Positions 6,287 to 38,082 of a stretch of 64,000 bases of DNA are shown one piece after another. The position numbers were made by a program, and so were the translations under genes. Position 1 is the first letter of the stretch, and every line of letters begins with the position of its first letter. Source of the DNA: Candidatus Hodarchaeaceae archaeon. Lineage in GTDB: Archaea > Hadarchaeota > Hadarchaeia > Hadarchaeales > Hadarchaeaceae. The stretch lies in NCBI GenBank assembly GCA_030018135.1, contig JASEGJ010000004.1, positions 31-64,030 of the forward strand, given 5' to 3'. The notes under the pieces were generated by a model. The model was not told the origin of the DNA, did no database searches, and saw only the letters and a program-made list of their open reading frames with translations.

Positions 6287-6289
6287 ACC

Positions 6290-9958: not shown

Positions 9959-10942
9959 ATGAAGCTCAGCGATATCGGCGAGCGATCGCTGGTGGAGCTC
10001 GCGCGGAGGATTTGCAAGCTCGGCCCCCGCGTCGAGGTCGGCATAGGCGACGACGCTGCCGCGATAAATATCGGCGACCGCTACCTCGTGGTCACGACCG
10101 ACATGCTCGTCGCCAGCACGCACTTCCCGCCGGGCACCAAGGCCGAGCAGATGGGTCGCAAGGCGGTCGCCGTGAACTTGAGCGACTTGGCGGCGATGGG
10201 GGCGGAACCGCTCGGCTTGGTCTTTTCCGTCGGCCTTCCCCGCGACCTCGAGGTAGGCTTCGTGAGGAGGATGATCCGCAGCATGGACGCGGCGACGCGG
10301 GGTTACGGGGCTTACGTGGTGGGGGGTGACTTGGACGAGAGCGAGGAGATAATCGTAACTGGCGCGGCGTTTGGCTTAGCGAACAAGGGCCGGCTCCTGA
10401 CGCGCTCAGGCGCCAAGCCGGGGGACATCATCGCGGTCACCGGCAACCTTGGCGCAGCTGCGGCGGGGTTGAAGATACTGCTCGAGCGATTGCCCGCGAG
10501 GGGATACGGGGAACTCGTCAGGGCCCAGCTCGAGCCGATCGCGCGCGTGAGGGAGGGCATGTCGCTCGCCAAATGCGGCTACGCCACGGCAGCGACGGAC
10601 GTGACGGACAGCCTGGCGGCGAACCTATGGCAAGTATCGAAGATGAGCGGGGTCAAATCGATCATCGATCGCGCGAGGGTGCCGGTGCACCCCCTCGCTC
10701 TGAAATTCGCTGAGCGCCATGGTTTTGAAGTCGAGGAGTTCGCGCTCTTCGGGGGCGAGGACTTCGAGCTGCTCTTCACGGTGAGGCCGGAGGGCTGGCG
10801 AAGGGTGCAACTCGCGCTCAAGCGCATCGGCACCCCCGTCGCGGCGATCGGGCATGTGGAGAGGGGCCGCGGGGTTTACATCGGAAGGGAGGGTAAATTG
10901 GAGAGGCTGCCTGACCGCGGCTATGAGCACTTCAAAGTCTAG
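9959..10942 (+). CDS. thiL: Thiamine-monophosphate kinase / AIR-synthase-related (PurM-like) protein
   Basis: Contains a GDDAA motif. PurM-like N and C domains. 327 aa. Confidence 0.7.
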   Translation: MKLSDIGERSLVELARRICKLGPRVEVGIGDDAAAINIGDRYLVVTTDMLVASTHFPPGTKAEQMGRKAVAVNLSDLAAMGAEPLGLVFSVGLPRDLEVGFVRRMIRSMDAATRGYGAYVVGGDLDESEEIIVTGAAFGLANKGRLLTRSGAKPGDIIAVTGNLGAAAAGLKILLERLPARGYGELVRAQLEPIARVREGMSLAKCGYATAATDVTDSLAANLWQVSKMSGVKSIIDRARVPVHPLALKFAERHGFEVEEFALFGGEDFELLFTVRPEGWRRVQLALKRIGTPVAAIGHVERGRGVYIGREGKLERLPDRGYEHFKV

Positions 10943-13489: not shown

Positions 13490-15133
13490 GTGCCAGCAAT
13501 TACAGTTAGCTATCGCGACCTCTGCGGGCTCCTCGGCAAACGCATCAAGCTGGAGCCCCTAAAGCGAAGCTTGTTGATGATGGGGATCGAGGCGGAGGCG
13601 ACGGGCGACGACCTCAGGCTCGAGGTGGCCCACAACCGCCCGGACCTGCTGAGCGCGGAGGGCGTGGCGAGGGCACTAAAGGGTTTTTTGGGTATCGAGG
13701 TGGGCCTGCCGTTCTACGGGCTTAGAAGCTCGGGCATAGTCATGCGGGTCGATCCGAGCACGAGGGCGGTTAGGCCCTATGCCGTCGGGGGGGTCGTCGA
13801 GGGCGTTAGGCTGACGGATGCGGCAGTCGCCCAGCTGATGCAGGTTCAGGACAAGCTGCACGAAACCCTCGGGCGAAATCGGAGGAGGGTGGCGATAGGA
13901 ATTCACGACTTGGATAAGGTCCGACCACCATTCCGCTACACCGCCGTCGCGCCAGACGGGATCAAATTTGTGCCGCTGGACATGAGCCGCGAACTCACAC
14001 CGGCCCAAATTCTGCAGGAGCACCCGAAGGGCATAGAGTATGCCCACATCCTTCGCGAGTTCGACCGCTATCCCCTGATCGTCGACTCGAACGGCGACGT
14101 GCTCTCGATGCCGCCGATAATCAACGGGGAGCTCACCCGCGTGACGGAAGGGACCAACCGACTTTTCATCGACGTCACGGGCACCGACGAGCTGGCGGTG
14201 AATCAAGCACTGACGATCCTGATGACCGGGTTCGCGGAGCGGGGATTCAAGTTGCGCTCGATCGTCGTCAGGTACCCTAACCGCCGCATCCGGGTGCCGA
14301 ACCTCAGGGCCACCCGCACCCGCCTGAACGTTCGGGGTGCCAACGAGACCATAGGCCTCGACTTGAAGCCCCGCGAGGCGGCTGAGATAATGAAACGGAT
14401 GCGCTTCGGCATCGTTGGCAAGAAGGGCGACAACCTCACTTTACTGGTTCCCCCATACCGAACAGATGTGATGCACGAGGTCGACCTCATCGAGGATCTC
14501 GCGGTGGGCTACGGCTATGACAAGCTCAAACCCGCATCGCCGAGGGTGGTGACGGTCGGCGAGCGGCATCCGCTCGAGGCATTGAGCGACATGGTCAGGC
14601 GCGCGCTGACTGGCCTGGGCTTCATGGAGGTGATGACCTTCACGCTTACGAACCCTCGCACGAACTTTGAGCTCATGAGGGCCGGGGGCACGGCCGCGAC
14701 CATCGCGAACCCAGTATCGGAGGAGTACACCATCCTCCGGACTTGGCTCCTTCCAAGCCTGATGTCCGTGCTCAAGGCAAACAGGCCCCACCCGCTGCCC
14801 CAGCGCGTTTTCGAGGTGGGCGACCTAGTGCTGCTTGACGAGGATGCCGAGACGGGCGCTAGGAACGTGCGGAGGGTCGCGGCCGCGGTCATCGGCGACC
14901 TGGGCAACTTTACGTACATCAAGGCGGTGACCGAGGCGGTCCTCCGGGATCTCGGTATCGCTCACGAAATCAGGCCCTTGGACCATCCGAGCTTCCTTGA
15001 GGGAAGGGCGGCGGAAGTTGCCGCGGACGGCAGGTGCCTCGGCATGATCGGCGAGCTTCACCCGGAGGTCATCCTAAACTTCGAGCTCGGGCATCCGGTT
15101 GCGGCTTTTGAACTCGACCTGCCAATGGGCTGA
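13490..15133 (+). CDS. pheT: Phenylalanine--tRNA ligase beta subunit (archaeal)
   Basis: GTG start. B3/B4 and B5 domains. 547 aa. Lies 220 nt downstream of pheS. Confidence 0.9.
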   Translation: MPAITVSYRDLCGLLGKRIKLEPLKRSLLMMGIEAEATGDDLRLEVAHNRPDLLSAEGVARALKGFLGIEVGLPFYGLRSSGIVMRVDPSTRAVRPYAVGGVVEGVRLTDAAVAQLMQVQDKLHETLGRNRRRVAIGIHDLDKVRPPFRYTAVAPDGIKFVPLDMSRELTPAQILQEHPKGIEYAHILREFDRYPLIVDSNGDVLSMPPIINGELTRVTEGTNRLFIDVTGTDELAVNQALTILMTGFAERGFKLRSIVVRYPNRRIRVPNLRATRTRLNVRGANETIGLDLKPREAAEIMKRMRFGIVGKKGDNLTLLVPPYRTDVMHEVDLIEDLAVGYGYDKLKPASPRVVTVGERHPLEALSDMVRRALTGLGFMEVMTFTLTNPRTNFELMRAGGTAATIANPVSEEYTILRTWLLPSLMSVLKANRPHPLPQRVFEVGDLVLLDEDAETGARNVRRVAAAVIGDLGNFTYIKAVTEAVLRDLGIAHEIRPLDHPSFLEGRAAEVAADGRCLGMIGELHPEVILNFELGHPVAAFELDLPMG

Positions 15134-15563
15134 TCTTTTGCGCGAGTCCCGAGCGATCGCAGAGTACATCGCCGAAAATTACCCCTCGGCAAGGAGGATC
15201 GTAGAGGTGGGCGTCGGCAGGCTTCCTGTGGCGGCGGTCGAGCTGAGCAAGCTATTGCCCGCCTGCGAAATCGTCGTCACCGACATCGCCGAACCGCCGA
15301 GTCTGCCGGGCGGCATAAGGTTCGTGCGCGACGACGTGACCGATCCTGACCTAAGCGTCTACGAGGGTGCGGCCTTGATATACTCGATGCGGCCTCCGCC
15401 GGAACTGCAGCCCTACCTGCTGAGGCTCGCGCGGACGGCGGGCGCGGACCTGCTCTTAAAGCCACTGACCGGAGAAAGCGTGCAGGTGGGCGGGAAGCTG
15501 GTGAACTACCGCGGGGCGGCCTTTTACGTCTTTAAGCAGTCACGATCTAGGATGAGCCTTTAA
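15099..15563 (+). CDS. UPF0146-like archaeal protein (methyltransferase-fold)
   Basis: 154 aa with a VEVGVGRLP Rossmann-like motif. The start is uncertain (overlaps the pheT end). Confidence 0.45.
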   Translation: MRLLNSTCQWADLLRESRAIAEYIAENYPSARRIVEVGVGRLPVAAVELSKLLPACEIVVTDIAEPPSLPGGIRFVRDDVTDPDLSVYEGAALIYSMRPPPELQPYLLRLARTAGADLLLKPLTGESVQVGGKLVNYRGAAFYVFKQSRSRMSL

Positions 15564-15791
15564 CTCCTGCGAAGTCTCACGTATAAGGCCGATAGGCGAG
15601 TTCCCGTGAACCACATCCAAGGACCAACCGGGAGATCCTGCCCGCTCTTCAACCCCAAAAACAGGGCAATTGGGGCAAGCAGAGAGAAGTTTAAAAGTAA
15701 AAGGGAGAAATAAAGACAGAAATCAAAAATCGAGATAGGAAACAGAGGAATGATTAGAAAAAGGAAGGCGTAGATTGCTCAGATGGCATAA

Positions 15792-16142
15792 AAAGATGGC
15801 GGTTATTTGCACTCGATCCAGTTCGCCAAGCCCTCATTGGTTTGCGACATTCAAGAGATCTTCAGGGGCATGATAGACAAATTTCTAATCGGATATGCTC
15901 AGAAACTAAATCAGGATAGTTTTGAAAGAAAAGGCGAAAGGATGTTTTTGAAGCGAAAGGAGAGCTACAAGCTGATAAAGGCGATCAACAAACTACTCGA
16001 CAGGCGGATTGAACATCAAAGAATCAAGAAGTATGGAGAACACTCGAAGATAAGGACGGCAATTGGGGAGGAACCGATGAAGCTAGCGCAATATCTTAGG
16101 GATGAAAAGGAAAATTATGAACCTATTGGAGCTTTTCTATGA
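15792..16142 (+). pseudogene. cas1: CRISPR-associated Cas1, C-terminal fragment only (N-terminal two-thirds missing)
   Basis: ...GGYLHSIQFAKPSLVCDIQEIFRGMIDKFLIGYA...IRTAIGEEPMKLAQYLRDEKENYEPIG aligns to the Cas1 C-terminus (GFlH...sLvlDlmEefRp.vD...sYr.aielQa.kLa..l.ge.~Y.Pf). The reading frame opens at a stop with no ATG (TTG only). Upstream sequence is non-coding and AT-rich. Confidence 0.65.
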
Positions 16143-17284
16143 AGCACATTTTTGTGATCGGCGAAAAGGAAAAGCACGAAATCGAAGTAGACCACGGGTG
16201 GCTGGGTAAGGTAACTGTAAGGGTTGATGGAAAAATCAGGTCAAGTAAGCGCCTTCGGAGCTTACAAAGAGGCTCCTTCTGTAGATTAAAAGTCGGCGAA
16301 GAAGAGAAACATGAAGCTGAACTTAAGTTTGAAGGGCTTTTTCCAAAAATCAGATGTTATGTCGATGGATATCCCCAACTACGGGAGGCAATTATTCCTT
16401 CCAGATGGAAGAAGCCAATCTCTTTAACTACAATCTTAGTTGTGTGCATCATTGTGGGTTCCATCAGCTTTTACGGCGGAGCAACATGGATAATTAGAGA
16501 ATATGATAAAGCACTTGAAAATCTAACTAAAGAATTTACAATTCTTCCTCCATACGTTCAGATTGAAAATAGAAATGTAAATATAGTTTTCAAAGCGTCT
16601 AATGGAACGTTGCACCACTGGACTATTGGGGTAGATGTCCTAGAGGCACAAATTGAGCTGGGGTATTTAAGAAGAGAATTAATACCAGATTTATTTCTGC
16701 CAATGATAGAAGGTATCTACGAGGCGTATTTGCCGTTAGCTGTTTTAGCCGGCATCAGCTATACTGAGATACAAGAGGTATATGCATCAATAGAAAATCT
16801 GAGGTCTTTAGGTATTCAATACATCAACTTAACTGATAACGAAACAGGCGAAAATCATCTTGTAATTGATTTCAGACCTTTTGTTATAAACAATTTCGCT
16901 GAGGTTATATCCAATCTTTATCATGACTTAGGAAGTAGTGACAAAGCTCTTGTTTACGAAATTTGGTATATAGTCACCCAACTGACAACTTATCACTCAG
17001 AAATAAAGGAAACTCCCAGATTCCCATTAGAAACATTGATCGGTGGCGGTGGGGATTGCGAAGATTTAGCAATATTGATAGCGAGCATGCTAAAGGGAGT
17101 CCCAGCAAATTACACCATTAAATTGGTTTATATGGACGCCGATAATCCAACAGACCCAAAGGATGTTAATCATGTCATCGTTTGGGTCGAAACTCCCAGC
17201 GGGTACAAAACTTTTGTCGATGGGACTTCTCATACGGATATGTGTCCATTCACAGAAGTTATTGGGTGGTATTTTGACGTTTAA
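16139..17284 (+). CDS. Transglutaminase-like (Cys-His-Asp) putative cysteine protease, membrane-anchored
   Basis: One TM segment near residue 105. TGc core motifs GGGGDCEDLAILIASML (Cys), NHVIVWVE (His) and FVDGTS (Asp). Low GC. Confidence 0.65.
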   Translation: MKHIFVIGEKEKHEIEVDHGWLGKVTVRVDGKIRSSKRLRSLQRGSFCRLKVGEEEKHEAELKFEGLFPKIRCYVDGYPQLREAIIPSRWKKPISLTTILVVCIIVGSISFYGGATWIIREYDKALENLTKEFTILPPYVQIENRNVNIVFKASNGTLHHWTIGVDVLEAQIELGYLRRELIPDLFLPMIEGIYEAYLPLAVLAGISYTEIQEVYASIENLRSLGIQYINLTDNETGENHLVIDFRPFVINNFAEVISNLYHDLGSSDKALVYEIWYIVTQLTTYHSEIKETPRFPLETLIGGGGDCEDLAILIASMLKGVPANYTIKLVYMDADNPTDPKDVNHVIVWVETPSGYKTFVDGTSHTDMCPFTEVIGWYFDV

Positions 17285-17816
17285 AATTTGAAATTAAGGA
17301 GGAAAAATTTGGACATAACTTTGGACATAACTGGAATCATCGTAACTGTTTGCTGCACTGTTGCGGGTTCAGTAGCAATCGCATTTGTAAATGCATCACA
17401 AATTTGTCAATACATAACTAGAGAGGAAGTTTTTGTTTCAACATAAGAAGATTTTTAGGTGGAGTAAGTTCTAAACGGAGGCCCAGAGCCCCCATTCCGT
17501 TTCCTTTGAAAGATGGTTATTTGCTTGAGAAAGCAAATGAAAAGCCAGATAAGGAAGAGCGGTTATTTGGTTGAAAAAGCAGGTGAAAGTTTAAAGATCG
17601 GCTTGGCTTTTCTTTAACTTCTCCGGTCATTTTCGGTCATTATGGGTAATCCCATCGTTTAAATAAAGCAATAAAAGTATGTGGTTTTTCAGACCGAGTT
17701 ACAGGCAAAAGGATGTTTTAATTAGCCTTTTGTGGCTTTTCTTTGACCTCTTCGGTCATAACGAGAACAGCAAATCATTTAAAGCGCTTAAGACCACTAT
17801 CTTCAGAGGAGGTAAA

Positions 17817-18563
17817 AAAATGAGGAAAATAATAACATTGCTCATGGGCCTAGCGATCGTTTTGAGCACAACTGTATCTGCCAGCGCACAAAAATCCCAT
17901 GATGTCGCCAACGCGTCCCAAGATATCATCATCGAGAAGTACGTACACTACGTCACCCCTCCGTGGGCGGGCTGGCGAGTCTCGACGGACGAAAACGACC
18001 CATCTTACAAGCTTTTCAGGGGCGGGGTCAAGTGGTCGTCTGCAAGCTTGCCTGTGACCTATCACGTAGATCCGGATAACGCTCCAGTGGGAGCCGTCTC
18101 AGAAGTTCAAACGGCGTTTGAAACTTGGGACAATGTTGTAACAACCGAGCTATACAATTATGCCATTGTGAATTCGGACGCGCAACCAAGTTTGGACACT
18201 GGAGTAGTCGATTACGTAAACACGGTCACCTGGCGCCCGATACCTGACACCACGATAATAGCTGTGACCTACCTCGCTTGGAATCGCGTGACCAAGGAAC
18301 TTGTCGAATTTGACATAATCTTTAACAGCAATTTGGCTTGGGACATCGACAGAGACGGCGAGGGTGGAGTCGAATTAACTGGCGATAATTTCGATGTCAG
18401 AAACATAGCCACTCATGAAGCTGGCCACACGCTAGTGCTTGACGATCTATACAAGCCAAAAGCCAGGGAGCTGACAATGTACGGCTATTCGGAGCCAAGG
18501 GAAACGAAGAAAAGATCGCTAGGGCTCGGAGACAGGCTGGGAATAGAGAAGCTCTACGCCTGA
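17817..18563 (+). CDS. Secreted zinc metalloprotease, metzincin-like (HExxHxxGxxD with a Met-turn)
   Basis: RBS GGAGGT. Signal peptide MRKIITLLMGLAIVLSTTVSASA. HEAGHTLVLDD zinc motif. Downstream TMYGY Met-turn. Low GC. Confidence 0.7.
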   Translation, partial: KMRKIITLLMGLAIVLSTTVSASAQKSHDVANASQDIIIEKYVHYVTPPWAGWRVSTDENDPSYKLFRGGVKWSSASLPVTYHVDPDNAPVGAVSEVQTAFETWDNVVTTELYNYAIVNSDAQPSLDTGVVDYVNTVTWRPIPDTTIIAVTYLAWNRVTKELVEFDIIFNSNLAWDIDRDGEGGVELTGDNFDVRNIATHEAGHTLVLDDLYKPKARELTMYGYSEPRETKKRSLGLGDRLGIEKLYA

Positions 18564-18591
18564 TTGGTAAAAGTCTCTGAGGCGTTGGTAT

Positions 18592-18630
18592 GGGGGCGCC
18601 GCGAGCGCCTCGATTTTTTATTTTTCTAAA
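18592..18630 (+). terminator. Hairpin plus T-tract terminator after the metalloprotease gene
   Basis: GGGGGCGCCGCGAGCGCCTC stem-loop followed by GATTTTTTATTTTTC. Confidence 0.4.
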
Positions 18631-19256
18631 AGGTTCACCCTGACCCCTCAAACCACCCATTTCCCAGCCCCCTCAACAACCCTTTCAAAAAGCGTTGACG
18701 GCAAATCTTGACCCAAATTCGCTGACCCTAATTCGATTTTGGCGATTTCTGGCGAAGGCAAACGGGGCGAGAATCTGCGGCATAAATTCGAAAGGAGCGA
18801 TTTAAAGGCTTTTCTTCCTGTTCCCAAGCTGTATAGGGCTGATTTTGACAAGTTCTATACCAGAGAAGTTTCAGATGGCATATTTTTGAGGCTGAAAATG
18901 GGAAAATAGTAAAAAAAGTTAAGATTTAACTTTTATAATCTTGGCAACTCCGACCTTAAAATCATACTGCTATCTCGGCTTTCAAACGTTTGAACGCCGC
19001 CATAATGGGGGTCTGCTATATGAGGAAACGTTTCCTCATGGGTCTTCTCGGTGTGGTCTGAACGCCACCGTGGTGGAAGCCCAACTTTTTTCAGGGGGCA
19101 GAGCCTGCCCTTTGAAATTTTAGGGGAACTCCACCATGGTGGAAGCCCGCCCCCGCGTTTCAGAACCTAGATTTTGAAACCTTTGAGGCCAACGGGTGGG
19201 ATAGCGCCTTGGAGTCAAAAAAAATAAAGGTAGGGAAAACAAAGATAACTCTAAAG

Positions 19257-21008
19257 TTATCGTGCCGTAATTTCTGGCTGTTCTTTAATCAGTAGAATAC
19301 TGATTATGCGGGCATAAGCCGGCCGCGTTATGATCACGGCCGAAAGCACGCCTATGATGGTGATTAGCGCAAAGCCCCTCATTGCCCCGAAGCCGAGCGA
19401 TGCGAGCGAGACCATCGCCGCGATGGTCGTTGCAGCAGCGGCGAAAATTATAGAAAAAGCCCTCTCGATCCGCCCACTTAGGCTCACCCTCCTTGCTTGC
19501 GGCAACCCGCCTCGAAGCACCTCATCTGTTATTATAATTTGGTGGTCCACCCCCGTGCCGATGACTGTGAGGAGGCCACCAATTTCAGGCAATCCTATGG
19601 TCCAACGAATGGCAGATGCCAAGCCGAGCGTGATGATCAGCTCACATAACATGGTTCCCACAATCGCACCTGCAATTTTCAAACGTCGATAACGCAGGTA
19701 AAGTAGTGCCCAAATCCCGATAAGTGCGCCAAGCCCAGCCCTGAGGGCCTCGCTTTTGATTTCCGCACCTAGTCGTGGTTCGATCTCGGTTTCGCCCTCA
19801 AATGATATCCTAACGGGCAACCTTTGAGATAGCAATATCTCCAAATCTTTAGCGTCTGCCTCGGCATCTCTCTTAGATGTCCTAACGCCGGTAATCTCCA
19901 CATCTTTAGCCACTGTTCCAGCGACTTCTGCAGCAATCTCAGGCGCGGATTTCACGCCACAAGCTCGTTGTATCCACTCGTCAATCGATTCGCCAGTTAT
20001 CTTGGGGATGCTCTCAATTGCCGGATAAAGCGTTATGACATTATCGATAACGCTTTCAGCGAAATCTCTTTCGTCTCCAAGGAGAACCACACGAGTTTTG
20101 ATCCCTTCCTGTTCCTGTAAAAATTGAAAAGTTTCGGGCGGTATAAAATCAAATAGTACCCCAACTGCAGGGACCTGCAGGTAAAAACTATACGCGCCCG
20201 CAGTAACATAAAACATCCTTGCATTTTCATCATAAGTCATATCGGTGGGTTGCTCGACCAAAAGCTGTTTGTTGAATACAAGTATCGCATCGTCCGGACG
20301 GTCGAGATACATTACTAGTCTATGTCCACCCTTGCCAGTTGATGCCTCCGCAAACCGTTGGGCACCATTCTCGGAGATTCTAAATGGTACATGATACTTG
20401 TAATTACCATCTGGAAGAGATTCAAGCCTTACCAAACCAACACGCTCAATGTCGCCGCCGCGCAGAACCAAGGTATTTTCGATGAATGCCTCCAGTCTGC
20501 CTTGTCTTCCAAGCCTTTCCTTTGCACGCTCTGGTTCGAGGCCAGAAATCTCAAAAAGTATGAAGTTAAGCCCAACGGGTTTAAATTGAGTACCGATAGT
20601 TCCAAATGGATCAACTCGCGCTTGGAGAATGTGCATAACTTCGTTACGCGTTGCATCGCTTACTTTTTCTTGCATGTCCACAACCTTGCCTAAATTGTCG
20701 ATTATTGTCGCGACTAAATTTTCGGTAACGGCTCTACCGATCTCAACTGTGACCTCTTTGGCAATCTCATTGTAGGATATCGCCCTGACTGTCAAGAGCA
20801 GGTTATCCTTCAGCGTGACAACAAGGTCGTCAAGCACATTCTCATTATCAACTTTGATCGTAACGTGCGATGCCTCTAACCTTAACATTATCCTCGAGCC
20901 ACCGGCGATGTCCACCCCATATTGAATACTTGGCCTTATGAGAAGTGCCGCCGACAAAAGCGCAAGGATCACGAGTAGCGAGATGCGCCATTCCTTAAAT
21001 GCTGACAT
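19257..21008 (-). CDS. secD: Protein-export membrane protein SecD
   Basis: 583 aa. N-terminal TM segment, large periplasmic domain, C-terminal six-TM bundle. Confidence 0.9.
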   Translation of the reverse strand: MSAFKEWRISLLVILALLSAALLIRPSIQYGVDIAGGSRIMLRLEASHVTIKVDNENVLDDLVVTLKDNLLLTVRAISYNEIAKEVTVEIGRAVTENLVATIIDNLGKVVDMQEKVSDATRNEVMHILQARVDPFGTIGTQFKPVGLNFILFEISGLEPERAKERLGRQGRLEAFIENTLVLRGGDIERVGLVRLESLPDGNYKYHVPFRISENGAQRFAEASTGKGGHRLVMYLDRPDDAILVFNKQLLVEQPTDMTYDENARMFYVTAGAYSFYLQVPAVGVLFDFIPPETFQFLQEQEGIKTRVVLLGDERDFAESVIDNVITLYPAIESIPKITGESIDEWIQRACGVKSAPEIAAEVAGTVAKDVEITGVRTSKRDAEADAKDLEILLSQRLPVRISFEGETEIEPRLGAEIKSEALRAGLGALIGIWALLYLRYRRLKIAGAIVGTMLCELIITLGLASAIRWTIGLPEIGGLLTVIGTGVDHQIIITDEVLRGGLPQARRVSLSGRIERAFSIIFAAAATTIAAMVSLASLGFGAMRGFALITIIGVLSAVIITRPAYARIISILLIKEQPEITAR

Positions 21009-21888
21009 AGTACTCCCTCCCCTTCAGGCGCTCAGCATACCACAACACCATGCCCGCGTTTAGGAACCAAGTATTGATGGTGCCAACAAGGATGCCAAAT
21101 ATCAAAACAGCCGTCAACTGGTAAAGCGCCGGAGTTATCGTAATAACATTTATAGTAACAACCGCCAGCAGAGTCGTACCGCTCATCATCAGACCAGTCT
21201 TCATGGCATCGGCCATGCGCTCACGTACTTCGCCGCCCAAGCGCTTTAACACGCGAACTGACAACAGGATATGCGTGTCGACCAAGTAGCCAACCAGCAT
21301 GAGTATGCCGGCAACTGATGCCAAACTAAGGGGTACTCCAAATGCTGCCATGAATCCAACTACGCCCAACATGTCGAGGCCGATGCAGAGTAGAATGACG
21401 CCAACGGTTAGGCTGTGCCTAAAAGTGATGAAGATGATGATCGCCATCGCAATTACGGCGACGGTTATCGCCCACTGCGCCTGCTCCTTATAGATGCTGG
21501 TGATTATTGGCCCCGCTGATTCCGCGCTGTAGCTTCCAACTACGCTAAATTCTTCCGAAAGAATTTCCCTAAGCTGAGCCTTCTCGTCGTCGCTCAAAAC
21601 TTTATCCGTCTCGACATCTAGACCAAACCTGCCTGTTAGGCGGGTACGGTCTTCGGTGGCCTTCACATCGACCCCAGCGCCGAGAAACTCTTTGACCCTA
21701 GGCTCAATAGCACCAATGTCGGGACTATTGTCAAGCTCCCGCACGCGTATGAGCGTGCCGCCCTTGAATTCCATGCTCATGGGAACGCCGCGGATGAATA
21801 TAGCCGCCGCTAGGATTGCCGTTAGAACCAAGGAGACCGCAATCATCTGACGGGAATTCATATGCTTAACTGGCCAGGTGATGTCCAT
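20995..21888 (-). CDS. secF: Protein-export membrane protein SecF
   Basis: SecF family. Start chosen at MDITWPV to avoid overlapping the divergent trmI promoter. Overlaps secD by 14 nt. Confidence 0.85.
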   Translation of the reverse strand: MDITWPVKHMNSRQMIAVSLVLTAILAAAIFIRGVPMSMEFKGGTLIRVRELDNSPDIGAIEPRVKEFLGAGVDVKATEDRTRLTGRFGLDVETDKVLSDDEKAQLREILSEEFSVVGSYSAESAGPIITSIYKEQAQWAITVAVIAMAIIIFITFRHSLTVGVILLCIGLDMLGVVGFMAAFGVPLSLASVAGILMLVGYLVDTHILLSVRVLKRLGGEVRERMADAMKTGLMMSGTTLLAVVTINVITITPALYQLTAVLIFGILVGTINTWFLNAGMVLWYAERLKGREYYVSI

Positions 21889-32251: not shown

Positions 32252-32491
32252 TTGATGGACAAAGTGGAACAGATAAGAGAGAAACTCCGGAACGTAATCG
32301 ACCCCGAAACCGGCATAAATGTGGTAGATATGGGGATGGTGGAGGAGATAACTGTTAAAGGGGATCGAGCGAAGATAGCCTTCAGGCCGACTATACCGGG
32401 TTGTCCGCTTATAACTTACCTAATGCAGCAGGTAAAATCTGCAGCGGAATTGGTCGTTAAGGAAGCTGAAGTTCAGGTGCGCGGCATTTAA
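32252..32491 (+). CDS. DUF59 (MIP18/SufT-like) Fe-S cluster assembly protein
   Basis: Contains VIDPETGINVVDMGMV, the hallmark of DUF59. 79 aa. Confidence 0.75.
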   Translation: MMDKVEQIREKLRNVIDPETGINVVDMGMVEEITVKGDRAKIAFRPTIPGCPLITYLMQQVKSAAELVVKEAEVQVRGI

Positions 32492-32554: not shown

Positions 32555-33046
32555 TTGGAAGAAAAGGTAGCTCAGCAGAGGGTGTTAATTTTTGACCCTG
32601 AGAGGTGCACCGGTTGCCGGTATTGTGAAATAGCGTGCGCATTCCAGCACTACGGAGTAATCAACCCTGAGAAATCTCATATTCATGTATTCGTCGATGA
32701 GCGGCTAATGGAAATGGAGGCGACCAACTGCCAACACTGCGAGGAGCCGATTTGTGCCTCTGTCTGTCCAGAGGATGCCGTCAGCAAGGACGAGGAAAAG
32801 GGCTGGGTGATCATAAATTCGATGAAGTGCATCGGCTGCAAATCCTGCACCCTGTCTTGCCCGCTCTCCTGTCCATGGTTTAACAAGGAACAGAAAATTG
32901 CCGCAAAATGCGACTTCTGCGACGGTGAGCCGGTGTGTGTGAAATATTGTTCATCCAACGCGATAAGGGTAGGTACCCGGGCTGAGGCTTTAAAGTTCAA
33001 CGAGTGGCGCTACGGCGAGGAGGCAAAAGATGTTTCAAGAAGCTGA
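32555..33046 (+). CDS. Polyferredoxin, HycB/HdrC-like (four Cys4 cluster motifs)
   Basis: Four Cys motifs: CTGCRYCEIAC, CQHCEEPICASVCP, CIGCKSCTLSCP, CDFCDGEPVCVKYC. Annotated with a TTG start. An ATG at 32538 would be in frame if one A were added to the A-run at 32561-64. Confidence 0.8.
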   Translation: MEEKVAQQRVLIFDPERCTGCRYCEIACAFQHYGVINPEKSHIHVFVDERLMEMEATNCQHCEEPICASVCPEDAVSKDEEKGWVIINSMKCIGCKSCTLSCPLSCPWFNKEQKIAAKCDFCDGEPVCVKYCSSNAIRVGTRAEALKFNEWRYGEEAKDVSRS

Positions 33047-33695
33047 GTTGCTTGAATATCTCAAGATTGAAATAGGCGTTGGCTTGATCAGCTCCTCCGT
33101 GCCGCGCGAGGGGAAGATCTGCGTGACCGTCAAGCCAACTGTACTTCGAACGACCGCCGAGGCCCTGCTCAAGCGCGGGTCGAGATTTGTGACCATAACG
33201 GCGATCGACGGGGGCTTGGACCTTGAGCTAATTTACCATTTTGACCTCAGCGGCACACTCATCACTCTGAAAACGATCGTTGAGAAGGAAGTTCCGAAAG
33301 TAGACACCATCGCCGATCTAACGCCCGCGGCCGAGTGGGCCGAGAAGGAGGTGGCCGAACTCTTTGGCATTAGCTTCCGTGCCCACCCGAGGCCCGGACA
33401 CTTCCTTCTGCCCGATGAATGGCCCGCCGGCAAGCACCCGCTCGCGAAGCCGTTCAAGTCGGAGCTCCCGGAGCAACTTTGTCAGGTGGCGGAATCTTTG
33501 ATTACCTCGGGTGCAACCGCGCCGATATCTCCGCTGATCAAGCGAAAAAGGGAGGAAATTGGATTGCCGGCGCAACCACCTGCAAGCTACGCGAGCGAGC
33601 CATGGCTGCGCGAGGTCCACGAACTAGTGCAACGAACCGATTTCAGCAAGAAGGTCGGCTACGATTGGAAAAAGAGGAAACTTAGGGGCAAGTGA
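33030..33695 (+). CDS. NuoC/EchD/HycE-N-like hydrogenase 30 kDa subunit
   Basis: AEWAEKEVAELFGISFRAHPRPGHFLLPDEWPAGKHPL is the NuoC signature. It is followed by a basic C-terminal extension of about 70 aa. Confidence 0.75.
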   Translation: MFQEAELLEYLKIEIGVGLISSSVPREGKICVTVKPTVLRTTAEALLKRGSRFVTITAIDGGLDLELIYHFDLSGTLITLKTIVEKEVPKVDTIADLTPAAEWAEKEVAELFGISFRAHPRPGHFLLPDEWPAGKHPLAKPFKSELPEQLCQVAESLITSGATAPISPLIKRKREEIGLPAQPPASYASEPWLREVHELVQRTDFSKKVGYDWKKRKLRGK

Positions 33696-33699
33696 AGCC

Positions 33700-34578
33700 A
33701 TGAAAAGATACGCGCTATTCTTGGGATGTTTAATCCCCCAGCGAATTCCCAGCGTTGAACTGGCGGCAAGGAGGGTGTTCGAGAGGCTGAACATCGAGGC
33801 GGTCGATCTCGAGGGTTACACCTGTTGCCCAGACCCCATAGTGGCGCGCTTGATGGACAGGAAAATGTGGCTGGCTTATTCCGCTAGAAATTTAAGCTTG
33901 GCTGAGCAGCATGGGCTCGACCTTATGACGCTTTGCAATGGCTGCTTTGAGACACTTTTCGAGGCGAATGAAATCATGAAGCGAGAGCCACAAACTAAGC
34001 GGGAGATCAATGAACTGCTCGCTCAGGCAGGGAAAAAATATGAAGGTAGGGTAAACGTCAAGCACGTAGTTGAGGTGCTCCACGAGGAGGTCGGAGTGGG
34101 GCAGATAAAAAAGCTCGTGGAGAGGCCGATGAAGTTGAAGCTCGCGGTTCATCCGGGTTGCCATTTGTTTAGGGAGGTCGAGGGCGGCGACATCTGGAGG
34201 AAGCCGAGGGAACTTGATGAGTTGGTACTAGCCACCGGTGCGAAGGTTGTCCATTGTAAGCTTGACCGCCTGTGTTGCGGTTTCCCAATGATGCAGGCCA
34301 ACGAGGAGCTTGCGTTAAAGCAAAACCTGTCGCTGAAGTTGGCCTGCTATCGTCATTTAGCCGTCGATGGAATCGTTGTGCCATGCCCGACCTGTGGCAT
34401 CCAGTTTGAAACGGGTCAGGTGTTGCTCCGAAAGTACGGCGCGCGATACGACATCCCATGCCTGCATGTAGTTGAGCTTTTAGCGCTCGCCCTCGGAGTT
34501 CCGGCTGACGAACTCGCGCTGGACCTCCACCGCAGCCCGGTTCCGCTGCTTGTGCAGAAGGTGTTGACGGATGTCTAA
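33700..34578 (+). CDS. Heterodisulfide reductase subunit B-like protein with two CCG-type cysteine motifs
   Basis: Two motifs: LGCLIPQR...YTCCPDP and PGCHLF...CCGFPMMQAN...CPTCG. The second carries the CCG signature. Confidence 0.75.
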   Translation: MKRYALFLGCLIPQRIPSVELAARRVFERLNIEAVDLEGYTCCPDPIVARLMDRKMWLAYSARNLSLAEQHGLDLMTLCNGCFETLFEANEIMKREPQTKREINELLAQAGKKYEGRVNVKHVVEVLHEEVGVGQIKKLVERPMKLKLAVHPGCHLFREVEGGDIWRKPRELDELVLATGAKVVHCKLDRLCCGFPMMQANEELALKQNLSLKLACYRHLAVDGIVVPCPTCGIQFETGQVLLRKYGARYDIPCLHVVELLALALGVPADELALDLHRSPVPLLVQKVLTDV

Positions 34579-35695
34579 AGTGATCGTCGGCCCTTATCAC
34601 CCCGCGCTCCTCGAGCCTGAACTCTACGAAGTCACGGTGCGGGAAAACAAAATTGTGGATGTCAGCATCAGGCAGGGCTACACGCACCGAGGCATAGAAA
34701 AGCTGATGGAAACAAAAAGTTTTCATCAAAATGTCTTCGTATGTGAGCGCATCTGCGGCTTCTGCTCGCACGCCCATACGTGCTGTTACTGCCAAGCGGT
34801 CGAGGAGCTCTTTGGCATCGAGATCCCAGAAAGGGCAAGTTACATTCGCACGCTGATCTTCGAGCTTGAGCGCTTGCACAGTCACTACCTTTGGTTGGCG
34901 TTGTTCTTTCACACGCTCCACGACAAAGAGCAATTCATAAGGATCGTCGATGCGCGCGAGCGGCTCATGGACCTTTTCGAGCCCATATGCGGCAATCGAG
35001 TTCATTACGCGATAAATGCGATAGGTGGTGTTAGAAGAGACGTAACTCAGGCGGCAGTGGGCCAAGTTGAAAAAGTCTTGAACGAATTGGAGGCCCTTTC
35101 CGAAAACACCTTGCTTGCCTTAGAAAAAAATGCGCCGAAGCTCTCCGGCTTGGGTCCGCTGTCCAGAGAAAAAGCCTTGAATTTTGGCGCCGTCGGGCCT
35201 GTTCTGCGTGCATCTGGTGTGAAGTCCGACATAAGAAGGGACGATCCGTATGCGGCTTACGATGAGGTCGACTTTGAGGTGATAACGGAGAATGGTTGCG
35301 ATGTCTTGGCAAGGGCGCTCGTTAGGGCGATGGAGACCTATGAGAGCATGAAAATCATTCGACAACTGCTCAGCGGCCTACCCCTGGGGGAGATCAAAAA
35401 AGAGGTGGGCAAGCCGCCGGTGAGGGAGGAGACGAGCAGGGTGGAAGCGCCCAGGGGCGAACTGATTTATTATGTTCGGTCGGATGGAACGAATATTCCC
35501 CGACGGGTTAAACTAAGGCCCCCAACCTATGCGAACGATCGCGCGGTAATCGAGATGCTTCAGGGACAAAAACTTGGCGACCTTCCAATAATACTAGAGA
35601 GCCTCGATCGCTGCATCTCCTGCACTAACCGTTTAACTATCATCGACGAAAGGACCGGAAGTAAAAAACAGGTAAAGCTGACCGACCTTGGGTGA
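34571..35695 (+). CDS. [NiFe] hydrogenase large subunit, group-4 (Ech/NuoD-like)
   Basis: N-terminal Ni-ligand motif RICGFCSHAH. C-terminal motif DRCISCTNR followed by a 20-aa tail. NuoD-like core. 374 aa. Confidence 0.8.
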   Translation: MSKVIVGPYHPALLEPELYEVTVRENKIVDVSIRQGYTHRGIEKLMETKSFHQNVFVCERICGFCSHAHTCCYCQAVEELFGIEIPERASYIRTLIFELERLHSHYLWLALFFHTLHDKEQFIRIVDARERLMDLFEPICGNRVHYAINAIGGVRRDVTQAAVGQVEKVLNELEALSENTLLALEKNAPKLSGLGPLSREKALNFGAVGPVLRASGVKSDIRRDDPYAAYDEVDFEVITENGCDVLARALVRAMETYESMKIIRQLLSGLPLGEIKKEVGKPPVREETSRVEAPRGELIYYVRSDGTNIPRRVKLRPPTYANDRAVIEMLQGQKLGDLPIILESLDRCISCTNRLTIIDERTGSKKQVKLTDLG

Positions 35696-36572
35696 AAAAT
35701 TGGGGGAAGTCAACATTTATCGGCTGGATGTCGGTTCGTGCAATGGCTGCGATATTGAGGTGTTCAGTGCCTTGGCCACGAGATTTGGGCTGGAGAAGTT
35801 GGGGGTAAAGCTCGTCGATGACCCAAGCGAGGCCAACGTGCTCATAATTACGGGAGTGCCGACGATCAAGATGCACGAGGTTCTCAAGGAGGTGCGCGGG
35901 AAGCTGAAGTCACCGAAGCTCGCCATCTCCGTGGGTGCATGCGCCCTTTCAGGTGAGGCGTTTGAGGGATCTTACAGCGTCGATGGGATGGTGGACGATA
36001 TAATTCACGTGGATGCATACGTACCTGGTTGCCCACCGAGCCCGCAGGCCATCGTCGAAGCGCTCGCCAACGTGCTCGAGCTCGGGCCGAGGGCTTCGGA
36101 GGCGCCCAGCGGCTTTAGGGGGATGCCCCAGCTCGACGCTGAAAAATGTACGGCTTGTGGCGCATGCGCGCAGGTATGCCCAACGGGAGCAATAGAGCTT
36201 GCCGACGAAGATAGCGAACGGGTAGTGAAGTTCAAATATGAAAAATGCATCTCCTGTGCTTTCTGTGAGGAGGTCTGCCCAGAGGAGGCCATAAGCATAT
36301 CCGCCGAACGCCCGTCATTAACCAAGAATAGGAAGGCGATCGGGATAAGCGGTAGAATGGGACTCCAGCGATGTTCAGTTTGCGGAAAACCCTTCGCGCC
36401 GACCAGCCAGCTTCAGAGGGCTGCGGATAGGATAGTGGAGGATGTCAAGGAATTTCAGGCATATCGCGACCTGATTGCTCAAGCCATGGGCTTGTGTCAA
36501 AACTGCAGGATGCTTCCCGAAAACATAAGGAAGGCGAAAATCCTGTTGTTTAAGCTTGACCGGGCTGTCTAA
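35688..36572 (+). CDS. [NiFe] hydrogenase small subunit (NuoB-like) fused to a 2x[4Fe-4S] ferredoxin domain and a C-terminal CxxC...CxxC segment
   Basis: Proximal-cluster ligands CNGCD...GACAL...GCPP. Ferredoxin motifs CTACGACAQVCP and CISCAFCEEVCP. Tail CSVCG...CQNC. Confidence 0.8.
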   Translation: MGEKLGEVNIYRLDVGSCNGCDIEVFSALATRFGLEKLGVKLVDDPSEANVLIITGVPTIKMHEVLKEVRGKLKSPKLAISVGACALSGEAFEGSYSVDGMVDDIIHVDAYVPGCPPSPQAIVEALANVLELGPRASEAPSGFRGMPQLDAEKCTACGACAQVCPTGAIELADEDSERVVKFKYEKCISCAFCEEVCPEEAISISAERPSLTKNRKAIGISGRMGLQRCSVCGKPFAPTSQLQRAADRIVEDVKEFQAYRDLIAQAMGLCQNCRMLPENIRKAKILLFKLDRAV

Positions 36573-36835
36573 AGGATTTTATAGACGAGGTCCCCCTCGC
36601 GCGCGCGTTGGTCGACCTTCAAACCGATCGACTGTCCAGCTTTGGCGACCTCCACATCCTCATGCTCGATCTGCATCGAGTTCACTACTTGCTGGAAATT
36701 TGTGGTCGTACCCTCTATGGATACTCTATCACCTACCCTCAGCTCATCGCTCAGCTCCACGACCGCCACGCCAATCTTCGTAAAGTAGTGGGTGACCTTC
36801 CCAACAGGTTTCTTCTCAATGGGTATTTCTTCCAT
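36569..36835 (-). CDS. EF-Tu domain-2-like beta-barrel protein (88 aa)
   Basis: VGDRVSIEG...EVAKAGQSIGLKV...REGDLV resembles translation-factor domain 2. Confidence 0.4.
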   Translation of the reverse strand: MEEIPIEKKPVGKVTHYFTKIGVAVVELSDELRVGDRVSIEGTTTNFQQVVNSMQIEHEDVEVAKAGQSIGLKVDQRAREGDLVYKIL

Positions 36836-37030
36836 TCACCTCACCAGATTAGGGTGGGTTTCTCCCAATTTATGCCTTTTTCTTTTGGCGGACCAGCGCA
36901 ATTTCATGCGTCTAAAGACGAATTTTCCATGCGCGCGATGCAGACTTCGGCGATGAATGTAGGCGAAAAGGTCTTGGCCACCGAGAAAGTAATACATGCC
37001 CTTCCCGTGAACCCTGACGAGGTTCCTCAA
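36836..37030 (-). CDS. Small basic hypothetical protein (64 aa)
   Basis: Stop codon immediately followed in frame by the ATG of the downstream ORF. Arg/Lys-rich. Confidence 0.25.
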   Translation of the reverse strand: MRNLVRVHGKGMYYFLGGQDLFAYIHRRSLHRAHGKFVFRRMKLRWSAKRKRHKLGETHPNLVR

Positions 37031-37194
37031 CGTGTTTGTGATTCTAAAAAGTTTGAGCTGGCGTGGGAACGATTTAATTCTAGCCGGGAGCCCTTTCGCG
37101 AGGGAGGGTCAGGGGCGTATAACCTTCGGCCACCTCCCTCCCCACGCCATTTGCTGCCGCTGTCGTGATTACCCGGCTCTAACCTCGGCAAGGA

Positions 37195-37515
37195 TCAGCG
37201 CTTTTCGCTTGTGCCCACGATTCCTAGGCGGCACCCCATGCGACGGCCCAACTCCGGGTACGCTTTGGCTATACCGAGAGTTATCCCCCAGCCACTGAAG
37301 ATAGCAGCGGTAATCGTTGCCCCCAGAAGCAAGTCCATGAGCGGCGCCTCCCCGATTAGGAAGAGTTCTCCATGCCAAAGGTGGTCCACTACCCCGAACA
37401 GTGCGCCCCCGTAGAGTAGTAGGTTGAGCCACCAGCCTGCGGGCCCACTTCGCCGGGCCCCCCAAACGATGGACGTAATTATAGCTGCCGCCAAGGGTAC
37501 GGTGTAACAAACCAT
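37195..37515 (-). CDS. Small membrane protein (3 TM, HLWHGE motif), divergent from nikR
   Basis: RBS GGAGG 7 nt upstream of the ATG. Hydrophobic. Could be a metal-transport accessory protein. Confidence 0.45.
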   Translation of the reverse strand: MVCYTVPLAAAIITSIVWGARRSGPAGWWLNLLLYGGALFGVVDHLWHGELFLIGEAPLMDLLLGATITAAIFSGWGITLGIAKAYPELGRRMGCRLGIVGTSEKR

Positions 37516-37555: not shown

Positions 37556-37677
37556 ATATTATCAAATTGCAGGGCCCGAGAAAATTAAGAAGTTATCGCA
37601 CCGTTTTAAAGGCGGTTTTTTACCTCGACAAAGCATAAATGCCCGAATTTTCAAGTCCACTCGGAGCTGGTGCTGTC

Positions 37678-38082
37678 ATGTCTTCAAAGATAACGCGCGT
37701 GAGTTTGACCTTGCCGCAGGGGTTGCTCGATGAACTCGATCGCATGCTCGAGGCCCAACGATATGCAAGCCGCTCGGAGGCGTTTAGGGATGCCATCCGT
37801 GATTTCTTGGCGAACTATCGGTGGCGGAGCGAACTCAAGGGCGAACAACTGGGGGCCATCCTCGTGCTTTACGAGCATGATGTGCGAGGATTGATGGACG
37901 AGCTCATGGACATCCAACACGAGCACTCGAGCGTAATAAGCGCCGTCCAGCACTTACACATCGACGCCAAAAATTGCTTGGAGGTCCTCATCGTGAAAGG
38001 GGCGGCGGGGAAAATTCGCAGTCTGATCGATCGTATCGGCGCCACGCGGGGGGTCAAGCAGGCCAAGTTGGTGGTGGTGTAG
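37678..38082 (+). CDS. nikR: Nickel-responsive transcriptional regulator NikR
   Basis: RHH N-terminus (KITRVSLTLPQGLLDELD...SRSEAFRDAIR). C-terminal ACT-like domain with the H-x13-H-x-H-x5-C Ni-site pattern (YEHD...IQHEH...QHLHID..NC). Confidence 0.8.
   Translation: MSSKITRVSLTLPQGLLDELDRMLEAQRYASRSEAFRDAIRDFLANYRWRSELKGEQLGAILVLYEHDVRGLMDELMDIQHEHSSVISAVQHLHIDAKNCLEVLIVKGAAGKIRSLIDRIGATRGVKQAKLVVV

Follow-up and report, generated by a model that had tools for sequence, protein, structure and literature searches.

A five-gene group-4-type [NiFe] hydrogenase cassette with an embedded HdrB-like subunit and without detectable membrane-arm genes in a probable member of the Hadarchaeaceae

Group-4 [NiFe] hydrogenases are the textbook membrane-bound, ion-pumping relatives of complex I. 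Several of them have been linked by genome inference to HdrB, a subunit of heterodisulfide reductase (Hdr), namely Drh, the 'disulfide-reducing hydrogenase' or 'Ech-Hdr-like' cluster, in Methanocella, Ehd in Methanomethylicia, Ehe in Culexarchaeia and Ehg in Nezhaarchaeia (Kohtz et al. 2022, PMC9723716). The Ehd cluster comprises nine genes with the core order hdrC, hdrB, [NiFe] (Kohtz et al. 2022, PMC9723716), an 'Ehd-like' cluster takes in Bathyarchaeia sequences, and Ehd, Ehe and Ehg have an antiporter subunit. In Asgard archaea, subgroups 4l and 4q were described as membrane-bound hydrogenase (MBH)-like enzymes that bear a heterodisulfide reductase domain at the periphery (Appler et al. 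2024 preprint, 10.1101/2024.07.04.601786). In Methanocella, expression of the Drh genes rises during syntrophic coculture, according to the papers that cite the original work (Lyu & Lu 2015, cited in PMC6046458, PMC9723716), and one study of Bathyarchaeia placed hdrB2 within an operon that was read as a reduced fpo operon. The published HdrB-linked group-4 hydrogenases are genome predictions and are all described as membrane-bound or membrane-associated; in the literature searched, the coverage of which was incomplete, no description of a membrane-free form was found. Here we analyze a five-gene hydrogenase cassette in a 64-kb stretch of archaeal DNA (64,000 nucleotides, positions 31 to 64,030 of contig JASEGJ010000004.1, assembly GCA_030018135.1; hereafter the window). 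A preliminary description of this DNA, made from its sequence alone, had regarded the embedding of HdrB in a hydrogenase cluster as unusual, a view at odds with the precedents Drh, Ehd, Ehe, Ehg and Asgard 4l/4q and with a membrane-bound homolog found in this study (L083). HdrB-linked group-4 hydrogenases have thus been predicted already, and what is new here is a membrane-arm-less, subunit-fused form with an altered substrate pocket.

As first described, the cassette consists of five tightly packed co-directional genes at positions 32555-36572 (+), separated in order by a 17-nt overlap, a 4-nt gap and two 8-nt overlaps (Table 1). Coordinates refer to the window, domains were assigned using Pfam and NCBIfam, and structural relatives were identified by matches to the PDB. 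The best solved relatives of the large subunit (gene 4) are E. coli HycE of formate hydrogenlyase (FHL; 7z0s_E, 7e-69) and P. furiosus MbhL (6cfw_L, 7e-65). Both CxxC pairs align with the Ni-ligand motifs of these two proteins, so that the Ni-site cysteines are present on realignment, and both motifs were found in 120/120 of the nearest large-subunit homologs. The C-terminal extension of 20 residues aligns with the C-terminal tail of HycE, and an extension of 16-26 aa occurs in all 120 homologs; the preliminary description was correct in listing both motifs and the extension. In E. coli the HycE tail is removed by HycI, and the extension of the cassette protein is presumed to be the target of a HycI-type maturation protease. 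When 1.8 billion representatives at 50% identity were searched exhaustively, the clade formed a single representative (442 bits), with the next match at 347 bits.

Beside a large subunit with RxCGxCxxxH and DxCxxCxxR, the cassette encodes a NuoB-like small subunit with the proximal-cluster ligands as well as NuoC- and NuoI-like subunits, that is, the elements that define a group-4 catalytic core. These comparisons support the view that the cassette encodes a genuine and conserved [NiFe] hydrogenase core of the group-4 type in which an HdrB is embedded. A pseudo-hydrogenase, or a NuoD-like protein without Ni, was considered and rejected because all ligands are kept across the clade and because hycI and hyp genes adjoin the cassette in relatives. 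The label 'Ech-type', which had been given to the locus at first, could not be verified: Ech (group 4e) is a six-subunit EchA-F set, equivalents of EchA and EchB are absent in the 64-kb window, and among solved structures HycE and MbhL match best.

The iron-sulfur (Fe-S) subunits fit this assignment. Gene 1 encodes a polyferredoxin whose four cysteine motifs, already noted, comprise 16 ligand Cys and are expected to hold four [4Fe-4S] clusters. Its best solved relatives are the Fe-S subunits of aldehyde oxidoreductase (AOR; 8c0z_C, 4e-30) and WOR5 (6x6u_B), HycB3/4 of hydrogen-dependent CO2 reductase (HDCR) and HycB of FHL (6e-14). By these matches it is a wire of the HycB/AorA/WOR5 type, as found in tungsten aldehyde oxidoreductases, HDCR and FHL. 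Gene 5 was correctly recognized as a NuoB-like protein fused to a 2 x [4Fe-4S] ferredoxin. Its NuoB-like domain carries the proximal [4Fe-4S] ligands Cys18, 21, 85 and 115 and matches HycG (7z0s_G, 2e-28) and MbhJ (6cfw_J, 3e-28), and the NuoI/HycF-like domain contains the cluster motifs CTACGACAQVCP and CISCAFCEEVCP and matches HycF (7z0s_F, 3e-15). The tail CSVC...CQNC (Cys229, 232, 270 and 273), which is invariant in six loci and is also found in the separate NuoI of L083, is possibly one more metal site. Across six independent loci with 43-100% identity all ligand Cys are invariant, namely 16 in the polyferredoxin, ten in HdrB, four in the large subunit and 4 + 8 + 4 in gene 5.

A search for the same five-gene synteny in related genomes, as had been proposed, found it in 17 independent loci: L001 (the public contig copy), L002/3, L004, L006/7, L008, L012, L060/61, L062, L063 and the eight loci L066-L073, some of which are partial. 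The large subunits of these loci are 50-100% identical to that of the window, and the named loci are labeled Hadarchaeota or Bathyarchaeia. Since the gene order recurs in 17 loci and the ligand Cys are invariant in the six aligned, the arrangement of the cassette is not due to chance. In several relatives, maturation genes adjoin the cassette: hycI in L004, L060/L061 and L063, hypA in L004, and hypF/C/D in L006, L060/L061 and L063. A transporter gene lies beside it in others (CbiQ/CbiO-type in L060 and L063, Zip in L002). No hycI or hyp genes were found among the open reading frames (ORFs) scanned in the window, where nikR was the only Ni-related gene found. One gene of the AIRS family at 9959-10942 was considered as a candidate hypE and proved to be ThiL (310 bits against 72 bits for HypE).

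None of the five cassette proteins has a predicted transmembrane (TM) helix, and no NuoH, NuoL or Mrp genes were found among the ORFs scanned in the 64-kb window. In the energy-converting, membrane-bound group-4 enzymes (Ech, Mbh, FHL, Coo and Eha/Ehb), a NuoH-like anchor and one or more NuoL/Mrp-like antiporter subunits accompany the core. Hidden membrane subunits were also looked for among the multi-TM ORFs of the window: those that reach 150 aa encode SecD, SecF and a rhomboid protease, and the shorter ones match known families weakly or not at all. The absence of membrane subunits close to the cassette, a central claim of the preliminary description, thus holds for the operon and for the whole window. 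It extends to the relatives, as NuoH and NuoL are missing from the cassette operon in 17/17 loci. Eight loci (L001, L002, L004, L006, L008, L060, L062 and L067) have flanks of about 10 kb on both sides, and in seven of them no NuoH or NuoL was found anywhere in these flanks, the exception being L004. Down to 50% identity to the large subunit of the window, all loci are membrane-free HdrB cassettes; those with at most 49% identity and a readable context are mostly operons with NuoH and NuoL.

Further arrangements were observed among the more distant homologs. L065 (6373-9972) carries a divergent membrane-free five-gene HdrB cassette, whose large subunit is 45% identical to that of the window and lacks the C-terminal extension; its subunits and its HdrC-like tail are shorter, and it sits on a contig of 40% GC content where neighbors have Por_Secre_tail domains, which may point to a bacterial host. 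Apparently membrane-free minimal group-4 cassettes without HdrB are present in L057, L115 and perhaps L096. That of L057 (7263-10025) encodes a 158-aa protein, an 87-aa NuoC remnant, a large subunit, a NuoB-ferredoxin fusion and a HypA-like protein, and hycI is located 3 kb upstream. It may be that soluble group-4 hydrogenases are commoner than assumed. L080 contains a membrane-bound group-4 operon (large subunit 49% identical to that of the window) flanked on either side by an opposite-strand hdrC-hdrB pair (5373-6800 and 15271-16800, both -), and one of the flanking HdrB proteins has a fully canonical pocket of the type that binds the coenzymes M (CoM) and B (CoB). In a rough neighbor-joining tree, L065 and its neighbors are placed beside the clade of the window; the deep branches of this tree are short and unsupported, and it covers neither L083 and the Methanomethylicia-labeled P0357 nor the Drh, Ehe and Ehg references.

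The identity of the CCG protein (gene 3) as HdrB-like, suggested initially by its two CCG-type Cys motifs, was borne out by two Pfam CCG domains and by matches to methanogen HdrB chains in the PDB at 5e-74 to 3e-54 (8rvu_b, 5e-74; 5odc_B, 3e-67). The best family is HdrB TIGR03288 with 272.6 bits, below the equivalog cutoff of 345 bits; the protein scores 117 bits against the SdhE-type fumarate-reductase anchor family and lower against the LdhH and GlcF families. All ten cluster Cys are conserved in comparison with 5odc_B, 8rvu_b and 7bkb_B. The residues that bind the reaction products CoM and CoB are known from HdrB of M. wolfeii (PDB 5ODR), where Arg14 and Arg240 bind the CoB phosphate, Arg201 the CoB carboxylate, and the backbone NH groups of Gly46 and Gly198 the CoM sulfonate, while Phe233 lines a hydrophobic tunnel (2026 study, PMC13261682). 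We mapped these contacts through the 5odc_B alignment and then across 16 cassette HdrBs. Only one of the six, Arg14, is kept, in 16/16 cassette HdrBs. Gly46 is replaced by I/V, Gly198 by M/T/V/S/A, Arg201 by A/V, Phe233 by T/A and Arg240 by T/L/S/I/M, and the loop CCGAGGGVR is changed to CCG(F/Y)Pxxxxx(E/R)(E/K). The three methanogen HdrBs and the canonical HdrB of L080 retain the glycine-rich loop together with five or more of the six contacts. Since the cluster ligands are conserved and the pocket is not, CoM-S-S-CoB is an unlikely substrate of the cassette HdrB. The altered pocket fits the lineages concerned, as Hadarchaeota and Bathyarchaeia are, in the descriptions available to us, mostly non-methanogenic. 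This difference from CoM-S-S-CoB reductases did not form part of the preliminary description.

The gene neighborhoods of individual relatives were inspected for hints at the substrate. In L006, a contig that is probably bathyarchaeial, genes for TusA, a YeeE-like sulfur transporter, two DsrE and one DsrH lie upstream of the cassette (4611-6941), and a GcvH-like protein and HdrA/FlpD genes lie downstream (14349-21128). These surroundings resemble sulfur-relay or sHdr-type systems and are a possible hint at the substrate. In two bathyarchaeial loci a second, canonical hdrC + hdrB pair directly follows the cassette (L060, 12128-13542; L063, 12118-13544), and this second HdrB has a different pocket loop, CCGSTIAA(L/I)DDK. 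Such hints are inconsistent between loci, and nothing suggestive is present in the lineage of the window.

Gene 2 had been described as a NuoC/EchD-like protein. Its NuoC-like part was confirmed by the Complex1_30kDa domain; that description did not mention that the protein ends in an arm derived from HdrC. The C-terminal stretch of about 80 residues is the most conserved part of the protein and contains no Fe-S ligands. Searched against the whole PDB, a profile built from this segment alone has no matches other than HdrC chains, to which it aligns end to end over the final ~75 residues: 5odc_C (residues 109-183 of 184, E = 1.2e-8), 8rvu_c (2e-8), 8rvv_C and 9sfi_E. The fusion of NuoC and the arm is kept in 23 homologs of 191-232 aa and in six loci. 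As the ferredoxin domain of HdrC is absent from gene 2 and the arm alone is retained on NuoC, HdrC has been split and its arm welded to the scaffold subunit of the hydrogenase. In the solved Hdr complexes the arm lies, as we take it, on HdrB (5ODC), and the HdrC-derived arm is therefore likely to be a docking device that holds HdrB on the hydrogenase, by analogy with these complexes.

We propose that the cassette encodes a cytoplasmic, membrane-arm-less H2:disulfide oxidoreductase, in which a group-4 hydrogenase would be wired to HdrB and would act on a substrate other than CoM-S-S-CoB, a reading that we hold to have somewhat better than an even chance of being correct. The five proteins would form one complex, in which electrons would pass from the NiFe site to the proximal cluster in the NuoB domain, the two clusters of the NuoI domain, the four clusters of the polyferredoxin and the non-cubane clusters of HdrB, and from there to the substrate. 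This path is proposed because of the analogy with the soluble arm of FHL and the best or clear solved match of each module. NuoC would serve as a scaffold, and the HdrC-derived arm would clamp HdrB. The reaction would be the H2-dependent reduction of a disulfide or related sulfur compound other than CoM-S-S-CoB, without ion translocation. With H2 at an E0' of about -414 mV and disulfides at about -140 to -300 mV, electron transfer from the former to the latter is exergonic and the reverse is not, which favors this direction. The assembly of the complex, the order of the path, its direction and the nature of the substrate are all predictions from sequence and analogy. The preliminary proposal of a soluble H2- or ferredoxin-linked disulfide reductase is still the best reading, whereas the embedding of HdrB has precedents and the 'Ech-type' label could not be verified.

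Several points weigh against the proposed enzyme. An H2:disulfide reductase that conserves no energy would waste a large free-energy drop, which is odd in subsurface archaea, whose energy supply is limited, and hints that a partner or a coupling is missing. Proteins with CCG domains also use substrates that are not disulfides, as the SdhE-type match mentioned above recalls. If the contact with NuoH had been lost, a shortened N-terminus of the NuoB domain would be expected; the shortening is small, with 13-17 residues before the NuoB CxxC in the fused forms against a median of 25 in the unfused ones, and it overlaps the range of membrane-bound enzymes. [quoted passage not shown] Finally, our view is limited to 64 kb of the genome, so that a membrane partner encoded elsewhere is possible. 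Since no energy would be conserved from a strongly exergonic reaction, three other explanations stay alive.

The first of these, which we consider unlikely, is that the cassette forms the peripheral arm of a membrane-bound, ion-translocating complex of the Ehd/Drh type, with NuoH and NuoL encoded elsewhere or shared with another group-4 or Nuo-like complex. It would make better physiological sense in terms of energy conservation and agrees with the membrane location given for every published HdrB-linked group-4 hydrogenase; L083 has the same subunits plus NuoL and NuoH, only 64 kb of the genome are visible, and the Mbh-type operon of L004 lies directly upstream of the cassette. However, that operon has its own NuoB/C/D/H/I/L, with two genes on the opposite strand between it and the cassette, and neither the operons of the 17 loci nor the ~10-kb surroundings of 7/8 fully flanked loci contain NuoH or NuoL. 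Relatives that do have these genes keep them beside the large subunit wherever the context is readable. Moreover, the clade-specific fusions of NuoB with NuoI and of NuoC with the HdrC arm coincide with the loss of the membrane genes.

The second explanation, a ferredoxin-dependent cytoplasmic redox valve that evolves H2, is less probable still. Electrons would enter via the polyferredoxin, from ferredoxin or from a docked oxidoreductase, and leave as H2 or onto a disulfide at HdrB. Subunits of the HycB/AorA/WOR5 type are known to connect catalytic modules with hydrogenases or ferredoxin, the characterized group-4 relatives FHL and Mbh evolve H2, and fermentative lifestyles have been proposed for Hadarchaeota and Bathyarchaeia in the accounts available to us. 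Yet the strictly conserved HdrB and the fused HdrC arm would have no explanation if H2 evolution were the main role, and no ferredoxin-generating enzyme is conserved beside the cassette. Minimal cassettes without HdrB (L057, L115) exist separately, which suggests that HdrB adds a distinct function.

There is only a slight chance that the cassette is the hydrogenase/HdrB half of a flavin-based bifurcating assembly that recruits HdrA, and MvhD/FlpD, from elsewhere, analogous to MvhAGD-HdrABC on a group-4 base: such an assembly would recover energy otherwise lost, and HdrA/FlpD genes lie 3-9 kb downstream in L006 and a second canonical hdrC-hdrB pair lies directly downstream in bathyarchaeial loci, but no HdrA or flavoprotein gene is found in or beside the cassette in the window, L002, L004, L008, L012 or L062, and the HdrC ferredoxin domain, the link between HdrA and HdrB in solved complexes, is missing, with the arm alone kept.

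Returning to the H2:disulfide oxidoreductase, a bolder version of it would be a widespread archaeal enzyme, found in Hadarchaeota, Bathyarchaeia and in a divergent form elsewhere, that is a truly soluble member of the group-4/complex-I family and reduces a non-CoM/CoB sulfur compound with H2. It would represent a minimal model of the complex-I peripheral arm, either by derived loss or as a pre-membrane relic; we regard this wider claim as doubtful. Candidate substrates of such a soluble enzyme would be, for example, a protein persulfide of a TusA/DsrE relay, a lipoyl carrier of the GcvH type or a novel thiol cofactor. If a conserved form without the membrane arm is indeed wired to HdrB, a complex-I-like peripheral arm would be able to work alone as a cytoplasmic redox enzyme. 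It would also point to an uncharacterized disulfide or sulfur substrate in two of the most abundant groups of subsurface archaea, which are without methanogenesis yet have several Hdr-like systems; the substrate of Hdr-like enzymes in such non-methanogenic archaea is a long-standing question. The cassette would be, in addition, a compact five-protein target for expression and structural work. Cassette genes are now annotated as NuoB/C/D or 'reduced fpo operons', with the consequence that respiratory complexes would be wrongly added to metabolic reconstructions. The value of the finding is limited because the idea of HdrB-linked group-4 hydrogenases has already been published from genome inference.

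Table 1. Positions of the cassette genes, their main sequence elements and the adjoining Fe-S assembly and nickel-regulator genes in the 64-kb window.
Feature	Position	Strand	Basis
Gene 1, HycB-type polyferredoxin, 163 aa	32555..33046	+	Pfam Fer4_11; four Cys groups
Gene 2, NuoC-like with HdrC C-terminal arm, 221 aa	33030..33695	+	Pfam Complex1_30kDa, residues 32-144; TIGR03290 (HdrC), residues 146-208
HdrC-arm segment of gene 2, residues 141-221	33450..33692	+	PDB profile match to HdrC only
Gene 3, HdrB-like, 292 aa, two CCG motifs	33700..34578	+	Pfam CCG x2
Gene 4, group-4-type large subunit, 374 aa	34571..35695	+	Pfam Complex1_49kDa (PF00346) and NiFeSe_Hases (PF00374, N-terminus)
L1 Ni-ligand motif RICGFCSHAH, residues 60-69 (Cys62, Cys65)	34748..34777	+	Aligned to HycE, MbhL
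L2 Ni-ligand motif DRCISCTNR, residues 346-354 (Cys348, Cys351)	35606..35632	+	Aligned to HycE, MbhL
Large-subunit C-terminal extension, 20 aa	35633..35692	+	Aligned to HycE tail
Gene 5 (35688-36572, 294 aa), N-terminal part, NuoB/HycG/MbhJ-like	35688..36092	+	Pfam Oxidored_q6
Gene 5, C-terminal part, NuoI/HycF-like 2 x [4Fe-4S] with CSVC...CQNC tail	36099..36572	+	NCBIfam hydrogenase-4 subunit H / FHL Fe-S subunit, residues 138-278
DUF59 / FeS_assembly_P gene, 63 nt upstream of cassette	32252..32491	+	Pfam PF01883, 2e-19
nikR, Ni-responsive regulator, 1066 nt downstream of cassette	37639..38082	+	Pfam RHH_1 and NikR_C; NCBIfam NF002169, 155.6 bits, above cutoff

An alternative start of gene 1 lies at 32582, and the public gene call has 154 aa. 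The DUF59 gene upstream and nikR about 1.1 kb downstream are where they had been reported. The former belongs to the context of the cassette and is possibly a candidate accessory gene; it occupies the same position in L002 and L012, was not detected in L008 and is absent in the bathyarchaeial loci. The nikR gene also lies downstream of the cassette in L002, L008 and L012 and is part of the lineage context outside the operon. Between the cassette and nikR, an 88-aa ORF (36569-36835, -) with a weak resemblance to a Peptidase_U32_C / EF-Tu-domain-2-like barrel is convergent with gene 5, overlaps its stop codon, and has counterparts of 73-76% identity close to the cassette in L002, L008 and L012. 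A small ORF (37195-37515, -) with two predicted TM segments and no family match is annotated as a gene on the public contig, and within an ORF without NCBIfam match (36608-37168, +) the public contig has a shorter gene of 98 aa. Further away, the region 16001-18600 has a GC content of 0.40 compared with ~0.55 elsewhere in the window and may be a foreign island; its ORFs include one of 381 aa (16139-17284) without Pfam or NCBIfam match and a matrixin-like peptidase (17679-18563).

The source MAG is labeled 'Candidatus Hodarchaeaceae' at NCBI, a name that refers to Asgard archaea. However, in one protein cluster at 90% identity, some proteins of a single submission series bear the label 'Hadesarchaea' and others 'Hodarchaeaceae', and the close relatives of the cassette that have a name belong almost all to the Hadarchaeota or Hadarchaeales. 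Synteny with L008 ('Hadesarchaea archaeon') covers thirteen of the window's flanking genes, at 56-83% amino-acid identity, and ten are also syntenic with the independently produced L012 ('Candidatus Hadarchaeota archaeon'). Most probably the organism belongs to the Hadarchaeaceae, and the label probably results from a mix-up of names. On the evidence of synteny and labels, an Asgard framing of the locus was set aside, and the locus should not be read as significant for Asgard archaea or eukaryogenesis.

Among the described systems, Drh resembles the cassette in having HdrB in an Ech-like cluster, in the lack of an antiporter and in the proposed direct reduction of a disulfide with H2 without an ion gradient, as far as its published descriptions go. 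Compared by these descriptions, its eight genes (drhG, F, D, E, C, hdrB, drhH, drhB) are arranged unlike those of the cassette, and the term used for the enzyme is 'putative membrane-associated'; from the Ech-based naming, drhB would be an EchB/NuoH-like anchor. The host of Drh is a methanogen with CoM-S-S-CoB as the obvious substrate, unlike the carriers of the cassette.

The complexes MvhAGD-HdrABC and Vhu-Hdr (5ODC, 8RVU) likewise combine a [NiFe] hydrogenase with HdrB and are cytoplasmic, and their ten HdrB Cys and their HdrC arm are recognizable in the cassette. The Mvh/Vhu hydrogenase belongs to group 3c. In MvhAGD-HdrABC, electrons pass through the bifurcating HdrA and the ferredoxin domain of HdrC, whereas the cassette lacks HdrA, MvhD and this domain; no HdrA or other flavoprotein gene was found in or near the cassette of the window. 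The HdrB subunits differ in addition by the replacement of 5/6 CoM/CoB contact residues in the cassette.

The soluble arm HycB-HycF-HycG-HycE of FHL-1 (7Z0S) provides the closest solved matches for the large and the small subunit, with HycF and HycB less close. The module order is the same, with a catalytic partner, a four-cluster wire, a two-cluster subunit, the proximal cluster and the NiFe site. HycC and HycD are membrane subunits of FHL, the partner of which is the formate dehydrogenase FdhF, whereas the cassette is without membrane subunits and has HdrB as the partner. HycE unites NuoC and the large subunit in one chain; in the cassette the two are separate. By analogy, the architecture would correspond to the soluble arm of FHL with HdrB replacing the formate dehydrogenase.

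A scan of metagenomes yielded L082 and L083, whose large subunits are 47% and 44% identical to that of the window. L083 encodes, in order, a polyferredoxin (170 aa), a free-standing HdrC-arm protein (97 aa), HdrB, NuoC, a large subunit (412 aa), a NuoL-type antiporter (620 aa), NuoH (321 aa) and NuoI with the CxxC...CxxC tail, followed by the contig end. Its close relatives are labeled Hermodarchaeota, Odinarchaeota, Promethearchaeota, 'Hodarchaeota' and Methanomethylicia, and the large subunit of P0357 is 45% identical to that of the window. L083/L082 and P0357 fit as representatives of 4l/4q and Ehd, an identification based on organism labels and gene content rather than on published accessions. 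With Ehd and 4l/4q, as seen in L083, the cassette shares the group-4 large subunit with intact Ni ligands and C-terminal extension, an hdrB that belongs to the hydrogenase cluster and lies upstream of the large-subunit gene, the HycB-type polyferredoxin, the HdrC-arm sequence, the CxxC...CxxC tail of NuoI and an HdrB pocket that is not of the CoM/CoB type. The preliminary description had considered that the large subunit might belong to a described clade that routinely carries HdrB; related clades of this kind are indeed described, and that of the window appears to be distinct from them, since the large subunits of L083 and P0357 are only 44-45% identical to it and fall into different 50%-identity clusters. 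In contrast to the window, L083 and the published Ehd have a NuoL-type antiporter and NuoH. The HdrC arm, NuoC and NuoI of L083 are separate proteins (NuoB lies beyond the contig end), whereas in the window the arm is fused to NuoC and NuoI to NuoB. From these comparisons, the cassette is best read as a membrane-arm-less, subunit-fused relative of the Ehd-like HdrB-linked hydrogenases.

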